DNA of 64,000 bases from an uncultured Candidatus Saccharibacteria bacterium (GCA_964501355.1 CAZCSM010000006.1:2347-66346), one strand, 5' to 3'; counted from the stretch's first letter, positions 42,746 to 55,552 are shown. The notes: generated by a model not told the origin, from the letters alone. A program made the numbers and translations.

Positions 42746-42774
42746 GTAGGGACAGGTTTAAAACCTGTCCCTAC
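42746..42774. repeat. Palindromic element GTAGGGACAGGTTT-A-AAACCTGTCCCTAC (REP-like), copy 1
   Basis: Perfect 14-bp arms. The same core recurs twice at 55.5 kb. Confidence 0.6.
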
Positions 42775-42799
42775 CAATTGATTGAACTAATAATTAATC

Positions 42800-45463
42800 T
42801 TACACTACCGCCATAGAAGCTACTTCATCATCACCTTTTACATTCATCAATTTCACACCAGTTGTTTGTCTATGCTGTGTTGGAATTCCTTCTTTCAAAG
42901 GAAGCATTATCGCAATGCCTTTCTTTGAAATTATTAACAAATCTTTATTAGGATGATCAAGAATTCTTGCGGAAATAAGTTTCCCTGTTTTACTCGTTAC
43001 CTTAAATGTAAATACACCCTGTCCGCCACGTCCCTGTACGGCATATTCTTCAAGTTTAGTCATTTTTCCATATCCCTTTTCAGAAACGAGAAGTAAACTC
43101 ACTTCACCTTCTCTGACAACATCCATTACTACAACACCATCGTCTTCTTTCTTAAACTTAATCCCGAAGACTCCCATTGAAGCTCTTCCCATCGGTCTAA
43201 CATCACTTTCTTTGAATCTGATACTTTTACCATATTTTGTAACAAGCATTACTTCATTATCTCCGGTTGTAGGTCGAACCCATGCGAGTTCATCTCCATC
43301 TTTTAGCTTGATTGCGATAAGCCCGGATGATCTGATATTACTGAATTCAGAAAGTTCAGTCTTTTTTACAATACCTGCGGTTGTTGCCATAAACAGATAT
43401 TTATATTTCTTTCCTGATTTTTCCGATTTCTCCTCTCCTTCTTGAATAACATCTTCTTCAAAGAAGCCATCTTCTGTTCGTGTTAGAACGCTGCTTACAA
43501 GCTCATTTTGGTCAACATCAATTAGATTAATAATCGGCTGTCCCTTTGCTGTTCGTCCAAAATCCGGAATTTCATGTGCCTTTAACTGGAATACCCTGCC
43601 CTTATTCGTAAAGAATAAAATATCATCATGAGTATTGCATTTAAGCACGTGTTCAACAAAGTCGCCTTCTTTTGTAGTCATTCCTTTTTTCCCGGTTCCA
43701 CCCCTGTGTTGTGGCGCATATGTACTCTCAGGCATTCTCTTAATGTATCCTTCGTGCGATATTGTAATAAACACATCTTCCGGTTTGACAAGGTCTTCTT
43801 CTGAAATCTCCCCCACTTTGCCTTTGATAACCTTTGTTCGTCTTGCATCTCCAAACTTTTCCTTAACTTCGAGAAGTTCATTCTTCACTTCATTTAAGAT
43901 TGCAATTGGATCGGCAAGAAGAATTTCTAAGTCAGCAATGAACTTTTTGATTTCCTTGTATTCTTCTTCGATTTTCTGTCTTTCAAGAGCGGCAAGTCTT
44001 CGAAGTTGCATATCTAGAATTGCTTGTGCTTGGATCTCCGAAAGCTTAAATCTCTTTATCAAATTATCTTTCGCTGTTTCCTGCGTCTTCGATTCACGAA
44101 TTGTTTTGATAACTTCATCCAGATTATCAAGTGCAATCTTCAACCCTTCCAAAATGTGTGCTCTGTACTTTGCTTTCGCCAGGTCATATTCATTCTTTCG
44201 AATAACAACTTCTTGTCTATGACTAATGAATAATTCTAATATTCTCTTTAGTGACAGGACATGAGGTTCATTCTCAACAAGTGCAAGCATATTGGCATTA
44301 AATGCCTTTTGCATCTCCGTGTACTTGAAGATTTTATTCAAAATCGTCTTTGGTTTTGCATCTTTCTTCAGTTCAACTACAACACGTATTCCTTCTCTAT
44401 TTGACTCATCCCGAAGATCTTTAATTCCATCAAGCTTCTTCTCTTTATATAAGTCTGCAATTTTAGCGACCAAATGTGCTTTGTTAACCTGGAAAGGAAG
44501 TTCTGTAATAATAATTTGGAATCTGTCTGCTTTGCTTTCTTCAATCTTTGCAACACCTCTCATCACAATTCTTCCCTTGCCGGTTGAGTATGCTTCAAGA
44601 ACAGATTCTCTGTCATAAATTACTCCGCCCGTTGGGAAATCAGGACCTTTTACAAATTCAATAAGTTCGTCAGCGGTTGCTTCAGATTGGAATTTCGGAT
44701 AAAGTGATTCTCCTTCTGCAAATGTAACGTCTTGATAAATTTCGTCAGGATTTGCGACTTCGGGAACTTTTTGAGTTTTTTCTCTTTCAATTCTTAATTC
44801 GTTATATTTTGATTTTCCTTCCCATTCATTTCCCTTATCGATCATATGGGCAAGCGCATCTACAATCTCTCCCAGATTATGAGGTGGGATTTTTGTTGCC
44901 ATACCGACAGCGATTCCGTCAACGCCATTAAGAAGAAGCATCGGAAGTTTCGACGGTAAAACGGTCGGTTCTGTATGATTTCCGTCGTAGTTTAATTCAT
45001 ATTTGACAGTATTCTTATCAATATCGGCTAAAAGATCGGCTGTGATTTTTCCCATTCTCGATTCGGTGTAACGCATCGCAGCTGCACTATCACCATCAAT
45101 AGATCCGAAGTTTCCTTGTCCGTCAACCATTAAGTATCTTGAACTGAAATCCTGTGCCATTCGAACCATTGTCTGATAAATAGCCTGATCACCATGAGGG
45201 TGATATTTTGCCATAACTTCACCAACCGTATTTGCAGATTTTCGATATGCAGAAGTTGGAGTGATCCCCAATTTATCCATGGCAAAAAGAATCCTTCTCT
45301 GCACAGGTTTCAATCCGTCTCGAACATCCGGAAGAGCTCTTGCTACAATAACACTCATCGAATAGTTAATGTACGACTTTTTCATTTCATCCGATATTCT
45401 AATCGGCTTAATGTTTTTATCAATTTGCTCTAGTTCAAGATTCTCAGTATTGTTGTCGTTCAT
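42800..45463 (-). CDS. gyrA: DNA gyrase subunit A
   Basis: AAMRYTE catalytic-Tyr region, QRR-region motifs and a C-terminal beta-pinwheel with GyrA-box-like QGRGG. 887 aa. Confidence 0.95.
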
Positions 45464-45486
45464 TTCTTAATAATTTGACCTAATAT

Positions 45487-47412
45487 TTAATAATCCAGAG
45501 ATGCAGTTCGTGCATGCCTTTGGATGAATTTTCTTCTTGGGGGAACTTCTGTGCCCATTAACATATCAAAAACACGATCAGCTTCATCTGCATCGTCAAT
45601 CATTACCTTTTTCAAGATTCTGTTTTCAGGATTCATCGTTGTTTCCCAAAGTTGATCAGGATTCATTTCACCAAGACCCTTATATCTTTGAACTTTCGCA
45701 AGTCCTCTTTGTTCTGGGGTTAAACTCTTTAGGTATGCTTCTCTGCCATTTTCGTCAATAATCCATTCTTTATGTTTTCCAACCGTAATCTTAAATAGAG
45801 GAGGTTGCGCTACATATAAGTAACCTTGCTCGATTATCGGCTTTAAATGTCTAAAGAACAATGTCAAAACAAGAGTTGTGATATGTTCTCCATCAACATC
45901 GGCATCGTTCATTATGACGATTTTATGATATCGAAGTTTTGATAAATCAAGCGTATTCCCTACTCCACATCCAAGCGCAATAATTAAATCCTTCAATTTT
46001 TCATTTTTCAAAACTCTATCAATTCTGTATTTTTCTGCATTAATAGGTTTACCTGTTAATGGAAGAATTGCTTGAGTTCGTCGATCTCGACCCTGTTTTG
46101 CAGAACCGCCAGCAGAGTCTCCCTCAACTACGTAAATTTCGCATTCTTCAGGATTTTTCGATGAACAATCAGCGAGTTTTCCCGGCAAGCTTGCCCCATC
46201 CAGTGCACCTTTTCTAATAACTGCTTCACGAGCTGCTTTGGCGGCCTTTCTTGCTCTCGCCGACATTAGTGCTTTCCCTAGGATTGCTTGTGCATCTTTT
46301 GGATTTTCTTTGAGATGCTGAACAATTCCATCATATACCACGGATCTAACTACACCTTGAACTTCCGGATTATTAAGTTTAATTTTCGTCTGACCTTCAA
46401 ATTGTGGATCCCCTACTCTAACGGAAATTATCGCTGTCAAACCTTCTCGAACATCATCCCCCGTTAGCTTTTCATCTTTTTCCTTCAGAATTTCAAATTC
46501 CGTTGCATAGTCGTTAAGCGCTTTTGTTAACGCCATTTTAAATCCTGTAAGATGAGTTCCACCTTCAGGGTTCTGAATATTATTTGCAAATGGAAGAATC
46601 TTTTCTTGTAAATCTTCCGTGTATCGTAATGCAACCTCAACCCAGACTTCTTCCATCTCAGCCTTCATGTGGAAGGTTTTTGAAATTGGTTTTTCATCAC
46701 GGGTGAGATATTTGACGTATGACTTTACTCCATTTTCGAAGAATATTGTGTGTTCTAGGCCAGATCGTTCATCTCTGAGTACAAAAGTTAAACCACCGGT
46801 CAGATATGCTTGCTGTCGTATACGTTTCAGTATGATGTCAGCATCATATTCGGTTACGGAAAAGATTTGTTCATCAGGTTTAAAAGTGTGTATTGTTCCA
46901 GATGTATTTGGATCTTCAGCTTTCCCGACCTTTTTGACGTCATATTTCGGGATGCCTCTTTCATACTCTTGTCTATAAATATTTCCATCTTTGTAGACTT
47001 CCGTTTTCATCCATTCTGAAAGTGCATTCGTACATTTCATACCAACGCCATGCAAACCTCCGGAAACTTTATACGCTCCTTTTTCAAACTTTCCTCCGGC
47101 ATGTAGACTTGTCATCGCCATTTCAAGTGCAGATTTTCCCGTTTCTTTGTGTGTATCAACAGGGATCCCTCTTCCATTGTCCTTTACTGATAAAGAACCA
47201 TCTTCATGAATTGTGATTTCAATCTTCGTACAAAAACCGGCAAGAGCTTCGTCTACAGAGTTATCTACAATTTCATATACACAATGATGAAGTCCATAGA
47301 CATCAGTTGAACCAATGTACATTGCAGGCCTTTTGCGAACGGCTTCGAGCCCTTTTAAAACCTGAATCTGGTCTGCTCCGTATTCGGAATTTTGTTTGTT
47401 TGTATCTGCCAC
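45487..47412 (-). CDS. gyrB: DNA gyrase subunit B
   Basis: GHKL ATPase N-terminus, Toprim [15 protein letters not shown] and the PLRGK-like motif. 641 aa. Confidence 0.95.
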
Positions 47413-47577
47413 TTTCTAAAATCTACTAATATACCAAATAAAGGATTATTTCTGCTCTCCCATCTCTCTAGGAATTCTAAAGATAATAGAATTAGCTTAA
47501 TTGATAATAAAATAAAGCGTTTTATTACGTAGAGTCAATAATGCAAAAGTTATTCTAGCACAAAAACTTTTTGCGTT

Positions 47578-54895: not shown

Positions 54896-54973
54896 TTTAT
54901 GTTATCCTGAATTTATTTCAGGATTTCATAAAGAAATATATGTTTACACTTTTTAATTAATAAAATTTCAAGA

Positions 54974-55390
54974 ATGGAGCAAAAACAAAAAGGTTTCACA
55001 ATCATTGAACTTCTCGTAGCTATGGCAATCTTGGGTCTGCTTATTGCTGTTATGATTCCTGGTATTGCCGTTGTTAGAAGAGGTGCTAGAAACACGGCAA
55101 GAAGAACTAGTTTGCAGGCTATCCAAGCCGCAATTGAAGATTATTATGGTACGGCTAGAAAATATCCGACCGTCACAAACAATGCTCCATCAGGGATTAC
55201 AATTAACTATACCGGTGCTGATGCGGAAGTTGATTCTCAGTTTACAGATACAGCTGCCACTGCTGCTTGTGGTAGTGCAATTAGTGATGTACAGTTTCGC
55301 TATAAATATGAATTAGTTACAGGTGGATACAAGCTAACTGCTTGTATGGAACCGGACGGTGAATCTTATATTCTGGATGGCACAAACTAG
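54974..55390 (+). CDS. Type IV pilin with C-terminal disulfide loop
   Basis: KGFTIIELLVAMAILGLLIAV prepilin signal. C-terminal Cys pair CGSAIS...KLTAC. Confidence 0.7.
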   Translation: MEQKQKGFTIIELLVAMAILGLLIAVMIPGIAVVRRGARNTARRTSLQAIQAAIEDYYGTARKYPTVTNNAPSGITINYTGADAEVDSQFTDTAATAACGSAISDVQFRYKYELVTGGYKLTACMEPDGESYILDGTN

Positions 55391-55416
55391 TTAATAAAGT
55401 TTTGTGGATTAGTTAT

Positions 55417-55446
55417 TAAAAGAGAACCTTCGGGTTCTCTTTTGTT
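55417..55446 (+). terminator. Rho-independent terminator after the pilin gene
   Basis: AAAAGAGAACC-ttcg-GGTTCTCTTTTGTT. Confidence 0.6.
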
Positions 55447-55474
55447 ATGGGATGGATACCGTGAATAATATTTT

Positions 55475-55552
55475 GTAGGGAACAGATATACCTGTTCCCT
55501 ACAGGATGTAGAATTATGGAATTCGTAGGGACAGGTCGCGACCTGTACCTAC
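55475..55552. repeat. Two adjacent REP-like palindromes with a GTAGGGA(A)CAGG core, copies 2 and 3
   Basis: GTAGGGAACAG-atatac-CTGTTCCCTAC at 55475-55502. GTAGGGACAGGTCG/CGACCTGTACCTAC, with one mismatch, at 55525-55552. Confidence 0.55.

Follow-up and report, generated by a model that had tools for sequence, protein, structure and literature searches.

Probable double-foot REP elements of the RAYT subclass 2.4 type in a Candidatus Saccharibacteria genome segment

The palindromes and the genes around them

The DNA analyzed is a stretch of 64,000 nt from an uncultured Candidatus Saccharibacteria bacterium (G+C, 37.9%), here called the window, whose positions are used throughout. It contains four short palindromes with a GTAG foot, P1 to P4 (Table 1), which are very probably repetitive extragenic palindromic (REP) elements, small DNA hairpins presumably mobilized by REP-associated tyrosine transposases (RAYTs). 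An original prediction had pointed to three palindromes of 28–29 bp with a shared arm, and all three (P1, P2, and P3; arm, GTAGGGA(A)CAG) were recovered where it had placed them; P4, located within the open reading frame (ORF) of a prepilin peptidase, is an additional fourth copy. Three of the four copies are thus extragenic. The distances between consecutive copies (12.7 kb, 22 nt between P2 and P3, and 336 nt) are irregular, and the units are self-palindromic rather than direct repeats, on which grounds an array of clustered regularly interspaced short palindromic repeats (CRISPR) was rejected.

Table 1. Palindromes P1 to P4, with the REP types assigned to them in the text, and the features next to them
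Feature	Position	Strand	Sequence or source	Description
P1	42746..42774		GTAGGGACAGGTTT-A-AAACCTGTCCCTAC	29-bp double-foot REP; 14-nt arms, 100% complementary (inverted-repeat finder)
gyrA	42800-45463	minus	Pfam	gyrB likewise on the minus strand
Type IV pilin gene	54974-55390		Pfam	
Terminator hairpin of the pilin gene	about 55418-55446			canonical
P2	55475..55502		GTAGGGAACAGATATACCTGTTCCCTAC	28-bp double-foot REP, one extra A per arm; 13/14 pairs (finder: 15-nt arms, 93%)
P3	55525..55552		GTAGGGACAGGTCGCGACCTGTACCTAC	28-bp double-foot REP; 13/14 pairs (finder: 14-nt arms, 93%)
Prepilin peptidase (PilD) gene	55592-56446		Pfam	
P4	55889..55914	minus	GTAG GGAACTGATA TATC TGTTCC	degenerate single-foot REP within the prepilin peptidase ORF

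All four palindromes carry the tetranucleotide GT[AG]G at the 5′ foot of the hairpin, on both strands in P1–P3 and on the minus strand in P4. The reverse-complement foot C[TC]AC closes the 3′ side of P1, P2, and P3, which terminate in CTAC, and P4 is one-footed. Because the GTAG and CTAC feet are mirror images of each other, either DNA strand of a two-footed copy folds into an identical GTAG-footed hairpin, which has a short loop. The bottom of the stem is GGG/CCC in P1, P2, and P4, and GGG/ACC, with one mismatch, in P3. The lengths of 26–29 bp fall within the 20–40 bp of this type of element. Folded as single-stranded DNA (ssDNA), P1 reached −13.9/−14.1 kcal/mol (z, −6.7), P2 −11.9 kcal/mol (z, −6.1), and P3 −10.0 kcal/mol (z, −4.9), the z-scores of the three ranging from −4.9 to −6.8, while the hairpin of P4 was weaker (−5.2 kcal/mol; z, −2.3). 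In the RNA fold of positions 55430–55525, the flanks of P2, GGAUACCGUGAAU and AUUAUGGAAUUC, also pair with each other and lengthen its hairpin; this longer structure may be due to chance or be the leftover of a bigger element.

The reuse of the arm, which the original prediction had judged unlikely to be accidental, exceeded chance in every scan of the window. Allowing up to one mismatch, GTAGGGACAGG matched five times where 0.39 matches were expected, a count reached in none of 100 shuffles, and the pattern GTAGGGN{0,2}CAG gave five matches against 0.29 expected. A scan for any GTAG-footed hairpin returned only the loci of P1–P3 and P4 (null mean, 0.53). Searches of the whole window with Rfam (gathering thresholds) and ARAGORN detected only a tRNA-Leu, and no RNA family over the palindromes. 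Two other sequences were noted in the window. The half-site GCAGGGACAGG at 37741–37751, with one mismatch, lacks a partner arm and was taken as a chance match and rejected as a family member; a tyrosine recombinase gene (36571–37686; Phage_integrase and SAM-like N domain; XerC/D-like) stops 55 nt before it, a proximity that is probably coincidental. A perfect 14-nt inverted repeat (GAAAAATCCCCTAT/ATAGGGGATTTTTC, 31484–31514), lying between convergent ORFs (31100–31402, plus strand; 31537–31998, minus strand), has the appearance of an ordinary bidirectional terminator and no apparent relation to the palindromes.

The gene calls made with Pfam bore out the predicted context downstream from gyrA and after the pilin terminator. 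P1 lies 25 nt beyond the stop codon of gyrA and 39 nt ahead of a VanW-like gene (Pfam), also on the minus strand. P2 and P3 are located between the terminator of the pilin gene and the prepilin peptidase gene, P3 beginning 22 nt after P2 and ending 39 nt ahead of the start of that gene. P4, on the other hand, is in frame and is translated as ...GEQIYQFPT..., within the linker that joins the domains A24_N_bact (amino acids 11–92) and Peptidase_A24 (amino acids 119–236). A placement at operon ends, as originally proposed, is therefore accurate for P1–P3 and does not hold for P4.

The role in termination or RNA stability, suggested at the same time, is plausible for P1 only. On the gyrA-sense strand, P1 has a 13-bp stem and folds as RNA into a hairpin of −22.9 kcal/mol, after which comes AUUAUUAAUG, and it was scored as terminator-like in a loose scan (tail, ATTATTAATG), so that it may plausibly act as a weak or partial terminator, a 3′ stabilizer, or an exonuclease block for the gyrBA transcript. 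P2 and P3 failed the terminator scan on the pilin-sense strand, where they have no T-run; the separate canonical terminator of the pilin gene is found upstream of them.

The same hairpin in other genomes and its partner transposase

One genome per species was scanned with the pattern GTAGGGACAG-N2-14-CTGTCCCTAC, which leaves the inner stem unconstrained. The two arms matched at least 120 genome loci, against a chance expectation that we estimate at about seven for 20 fixed bases. The hosts belong to the Patescibacteria, Omnitrophota, Bacteroidota, Nitrospinota, Chloroflexota, Spirochaetota, Acidobacteriota, Gammaproteobacteria, and others, two isolates being among them, and at least 120 metagenome loci carry the P2-type arm. 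Neither blastn nor tblastx detected related DNA between the window and any of the fetched loci; the copies in other genomes are therefore not from the same organism as the window. Palindromes are carried by related and unrelated genomes alike, contrary to the outcome that the original prediction had named as refuting it (no further copies genome-wide and none in related genomes).

Nearly all of the 137 copies extracted from the genome loci are 28–29 bp long. Several subtypes of the inner segment recur among them (GTCGCGAC, AACATTGTT, GGCATGCC, GTTT-N-AAAC, and CATAATATG), and in 108 copies all four of the inner positions are complementary, where chance would give 1/256. At each inner position at least three types of base pair occur; at the first, for example, GC was counted 78 times, AT 32 times, and CG 18 times. 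Since the free inner stem stays complementary with several pair types, it is the hairpin, and not merely the sequence, that is conserved.

Some of the copies are nevertheless identical at great taxonomic distance. The consensus 28-mer, GTAGGGACAGGTCGCGACCTGTCCCTAC, is unchanged in 30 of the 120 genome loci listed, loci of 0.33–0.65 G+C from at least seven named phyla, and P3 departs from it by one substitution. The exact 29-mer of P1 is also found in a Komeilibacteria locus (L067) and an Omnitrophota locus (L092), and the exact 28-mer of P2 in one further locus (L206). When a conserved insertion target was sought in the flanks, they showed no more than AT-richness and a slight bias toward A (51%) after CTAC.

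Other arrangements of the palindrome were also observed. The Omnitrophota genome C20_metabat.bin.9 has copies in at least 10 loci and, beside the GGGACAG family, a sister family, GTAGGGGCGGGTTTCAAACCCGCCCCTAC (L010, L029, L049, L092); the two have identical loops and different stems, and often lie tens of nucleotides apart. In locus L016 (673–760), the consensus 28-mer sits exactly in the center of a larger REP-like palindrome, ggtatggacaggtcacaat ... attgtgacctgtccatac, 160 nt upstream of a RAYT gene, a nesting which suggests that REPs insert into the loops of REPs. Eight viral contigs (IMG/VR, L243–L250) also contain the GTAGGGACAG...CTGTCCCTAC palindrome, and these could be vehicles of transfer across phyla or host DNA mis-called as viral.

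All ORFs lying up to 600 nt from a palindrome were clustered all against all in search of a partner. One specific family was identified, comprising 11 ORFs of about 170–220 amino acids, at 11 of the 120 genome loci listed, in Bacteroidota, Patescibacteria, and Gammaproteobacteria. Its members share the motifs YFxTxCT, MPNH[VIF]HGI (the HUH motif), WQRSF, and YIxxNP, and each of them contains the palindrome in frame, between MPNH[VIF]HGI and the WQRSF...YIxxNP region, where it is translated as VGTGRDLSL, VGTEHCSVPT, VGTGHALSL, or VGTGLKPVPT. The proteins match Y1_Tnp of Pfam above its cut-off (up to 33.7 bits) and the NCBIfam model REP_Tyr_transpos (REP-associated tyrosine transposase, NF047646) with 50–68 bits; their best match in the PDB is the E. 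coli TnpA_REP (4er8), and two of them are annotated by NCBI as "transposase [Patescibacteria group bacterium]". The remaining recurrent ORF clusters (OmpR-type response regulators, secretion-tagged surface proteins, sulfatases, and tetratricopeptide-repeat proteins) were judged generic by reading the sequences and rejected as partners.

At the level of motifs, the signature of TnpA_REP subclass 2.4, together with an in-frame REP between HUH and Y, was recognized in the RAYT ORFs of ten loci (L016, L030, L041, L042, L047, L069, L086, L095, L110, and L111). RAYTs sharing a REP subtype resemble each other more, and in five Patescibacteria loci (L030, L042, L069, L078, and L111) RAYTs were found with embedded REPs of matching subtypes, among them MFH0776883.1 (L111), which carries a REP of the P1 type. 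MEK7495535.1 is a further Patescibacteria RAYT of subclass 2.4. The metagenome set of the P2 type gave a similar picture, with a RAYT homolog in 16 of the 120 loci listed and the REP inside the RAYT match in 12 of these 16.

Occupied and empty sites in relatives

Syntenic relatives were fetched through homologs of the window PilD, the closest of which are Patescibacteria proteins, and the spacer between the pilin gene and pilD was compared among them. The window has two REPs in this spacer (P2 and P3). The relative L121, whose PilD is 81% identical, has a single REP (GTAGGGGGCAGATATATCTGTACCCTAA) at the position of P2 and lacks P3, and no REP is present in the spacers of L122 and L252, with PilDs 62% and 48% identical, respectively. 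The terminator and a TATGAT box are still alignable across all these spacers. This distribution of filled and empty sites fits the insertion or deletion of an element, and not a conserved regulatory site.

Orthologs of the P4 hairpin were found in L121 (1036–1063), where all 10 bp of the stem are paired perfectly, and in L122 (about 10098–10123), where an A-T pair is replaced by a compensatory T-A pair (GGAAC/GTTCC versus GGATC/GATCC) at the price of two amino-acid changes, and it was lost in L251 (PilD 59% identical). Its retention down to 62% PilD identity could reflect selection on the structure or repeated replacement, with three sequences to judge by. The PilD of L121 also contains a second, complete double-foot REP (GTAGGGAATGCCCATGGGAATTCCCTAC, 1219–1246), in frame (RECPWEFPT) and within a variable loop of the protein; this REP is missing from the PilD of the window.

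Identity, alternatives, and significance

TnpA_REP subclass 2.4, which is the same as group 4 of the RAYT classification of Bertels, comprises proteins of about 194 amino acids with the motifs NH[IFV]H, WQ, and YIxNNP (Quentin 2018, PMC6006769). In complete genomes they are known from Cyanobacteria, Bacteroidetes, and various other phyla, and two forms of REP go with them: the "canonical long" form, whose stem begins with three G-C pairs, and the "double foot" form, which has GT[AG]G at the 5′ and C[TC]AC at the 3′ side (PMC6006769). The palindromes described here agree with the double-foot REPs of this subclass in their feet, in the three G-C pairs at the base of the stem, in their length of about 28 bp, and in their patchy spread over many phyla. 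So does the partner transposase, with NH[IFV]H, WQ, and YIxxNP motifs in about 190 amino acids and, as a hallmark of subclass 2.4, an in-frame internal REP. We conclude that P1–P3 are double-foot REPs and P4 a "canonical long" REP, and that such palindromes are very probably the cognate substrate of the HUH/Y1 nucleases of subclass 2.4. This conclusion draws support from their anatomy and non-random recurrence, from the covariation within the stem and the RAYT link in other genomes, and from the filled/empty polymorphism among relatives. The REP-like dispersed family that had originally been proposed is thus borne out, by the GTAG-footed hairpin and by that same link.

Several points weigh against this identification. 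No RAYT homolog was found in the 64-kb window by tblastn or by a profile hidden Markov model with filters off (best E, 0.9), and the link between REP and RAYT is one of co-occurrence in other organisms. The scores of the partner proteins against NF047646 lie under the equivalog cut-off of 80 bits. The window holds only four copies, of three subtypes, unlike a large and homogeneous REP or REPIN population. Finally, the published assays of RAYTs cover groups 2 and 3 only. There are also two differences from the published set of this subclass: the host is a Patescibacteria metagenome-assembled genome without a RAYT in 64 kb, and one 28-mer is unchanged in at least seven named phyla, while REPs were described as species-specific by Quentin (PMC6006769).

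Comparison with other known systems sharpens the assignment. The REPs of E. coli and their TnpA_REP (group 2; 4er8; Messing 2012; Ton-Hoang 2012; Corneloup 2021) also have a GTAG guide at the foot of the hairpin and an HUH/Y1 partner, are mostly extragenic and placed after genes, and have proposed side roles in mRNA stabilization and termination. They differ in having a single foot, a bulged and imperfect stem, and hundreds of copies arranged as bacterial interspersed mosaic elements (BIMEs), as against two feet, perfect or near-perfect stems, and a low observed number here. REP doublets forming hairpins (REPINs; Bertels and Rainey 2011) are likewise non-autonomous assemblies of REPs, whose movement is ascribed to a single-copy RAYT. 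A REPIN, however, consists of two near-identical inverted REPs in one long hairpin, whereas P2 and P3 are of differing subtypes and each double-foot REP is itself symmetric; as P2 and P3 have unlike arms and loops and form separate hairpins, and P1 and P4 are solitary, a REPIN was rejected.

GTAG-tagged REP superfamilies and intragenic REPs have been catalogued (Di Nocera 2013, PMC3733652). P4 and the second REP in the PilD of L121 resemble these intragenic REPs and the Rickettsia palindromic elements (RPEs) as in-frame palindromes tolerated in loops or linkers (PMC3733652), but RPEs are 100–150 bp long and have neither a GTAG foot nor a known transposase. The subterminal hairpins of IS200/IS605, with a 5′ guide tetranucleotide, are read as ssDNA by a Y1 HUH transposase; those hairpins flank the transposase gene and form the left and right ends of an autonomous element, unlike the palindromes of this family, which are solitary here and lie inside the transposase ORF elsewhere.

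By homology with the systems studied in E. coli, Stenotrophomonas, and Marinomonas, a mechanism can be proposed. Binding of the folded single strand, a use of or requirement for the GTAG foot, cleavage at CT or CA, and strand transfer have all been demonstrated in vitro for RAYTs of groups 2 and 3. In the organism of the window, a RAYT would bind the hairpin folded from ssDNA, for example at a replication fork, together with its GTAG foot, cleave nearby to form a 5′-phosphotyrosine link, and join the strand at another place, by which REPs would spread or rearrange. We infer that in a double-foot REP the AG of the guide faces a CT contributed by the 3′ CTAC, and that a single hairpin may thus hold both guide and cleavage site. 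Once inserted, the REPs would be transcribed along with the neighboring genes; P1 would then supply a stable 3′ hairpin to the gyrB-gyrA transcript, as a partial terminator or exonuclease block, and P4 would persist as a tolerated in-frame insert of the linker.

The alternative that survives best concerns the present activity of the elements and not their identity. The palindromes might be fossil REPs, members of the family that are no longer mobilized because the RAYT was lost from this reduced genome, or was never present and the copies were gained by recombination with foreign DNA, and that now serve purely as structural RNA or DNA hairpins. We regard this as possible but rather unlikely. 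The lack of a RAYT and the few copies of several subtypes, already mentioned, would be consistent with it, as would the arm mismatches in P3, P4, and the L121 copy and the loss of one foot in P4. On the other hand, site occupancy differs even between the window and its 81%-identical relative, which implies a fairly recent gain or loss, P1 is perfectly palindromic, REPs of the same subtypes are embedded in RAYTs at five Patescibacteria loci, and only 64 kb of the genome are in view.

It is very improbable that the palindromes are intrinsic terminators or stabilizers of mRNA 3′ ends that evolved locally, without a mobile-element origin. The terminator-like character of P1, with its strong RNA hairpin on the gyrA-sense strand, and the position of three of the four copies after gene ends would be in keeping with such an origin. 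Identical 28–29-mers, however, recur across unrelated phyla and inside RAYT genes, which rules out a convergent origin; moreover, P2 and P3 lie beyond a separate canonical terminator and lack the T-run on the sense strand, the orthologous spacers of the relatives function without palindromes, and P4 is intragenic.

DNA-uptake sequences of Neisseria often occur as inverted pairs after genes. Operator sites of a dimeric regulator, or uptake sequences for a competence machinery of the type IV pilus, are suggested by the perfect symmetry and by the location of P2 and P3 within a type IV pilus operon, but are extremely improbable, as across 240 loci no neighboring gene or regulator recurs except the RAYT (the other clusters being generic), the palindromes are absent from the syntenic pilus operons of relatives, the density is of about one site (some seven arms in 64 kb in all) per 16 kb rather than about one per kilobase of a fixed 9–12-mer, as in known uptake sequences, and the inner stem covaries in a way that preserves pairing rather than sequence, which indicates recognition of a folded single strand and not of a duplex.

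The very probable assignment to the REPs of subclass 2.4 leaves their distribution to be considered. A tentative and rather doubtful extension is that the GTAGGGACAG-type REP and the subclass 2.4 RAYT form a self-contained unit moving across phyla, whose copies in this lineage of the candidate phyla radiation (CPR) were then kept by selection as structural hairpins. With a copy of the substrate embedded in frame in the RAYT gene, the enzyme would always travel along with its REP, and this would explain why one 28-mer is identical across Patescibacteria, Nitrospinota, and Bacteroidota. The step of selective retention is suggested by the hairpin inside pilD, whose pairing has been preserved by a compensatory change although the orthologs are only 62% identical.

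A known kind of REP is thus described in a new host group, and the interest that remains lies in a hairpin that is identical across phyla and in one that persists inside pilD. Patescibacteria, with genomes of about 1 Mb, are generally regarded as poor in repetitive and mobile DNA, and our search of the literature for REPs in Patescibacteria or the CPR, whose coverage was incomplete, returned nothing relevant. The finding extends REP/RAYT systems to this group. For annotation, odd conserved peptides in otherwise unrelated proteins, such as VGTGRDLSL and xEQxxxFPT, can be understood once REPs are recognized. A perfect 28-mer common to many phyla, together with matching RAYT genes, also offers an easily synthesized substrate for subclass 2.4. 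Finally, the identity of the hairpin across phyla touches the debate on whether REPs and RAYTs are "domesticated" partners passed on vertically or elements that move horizontally, and a unit crossing phyla, if true, would contradict the view of REPs as species-specific and vertically inherited.

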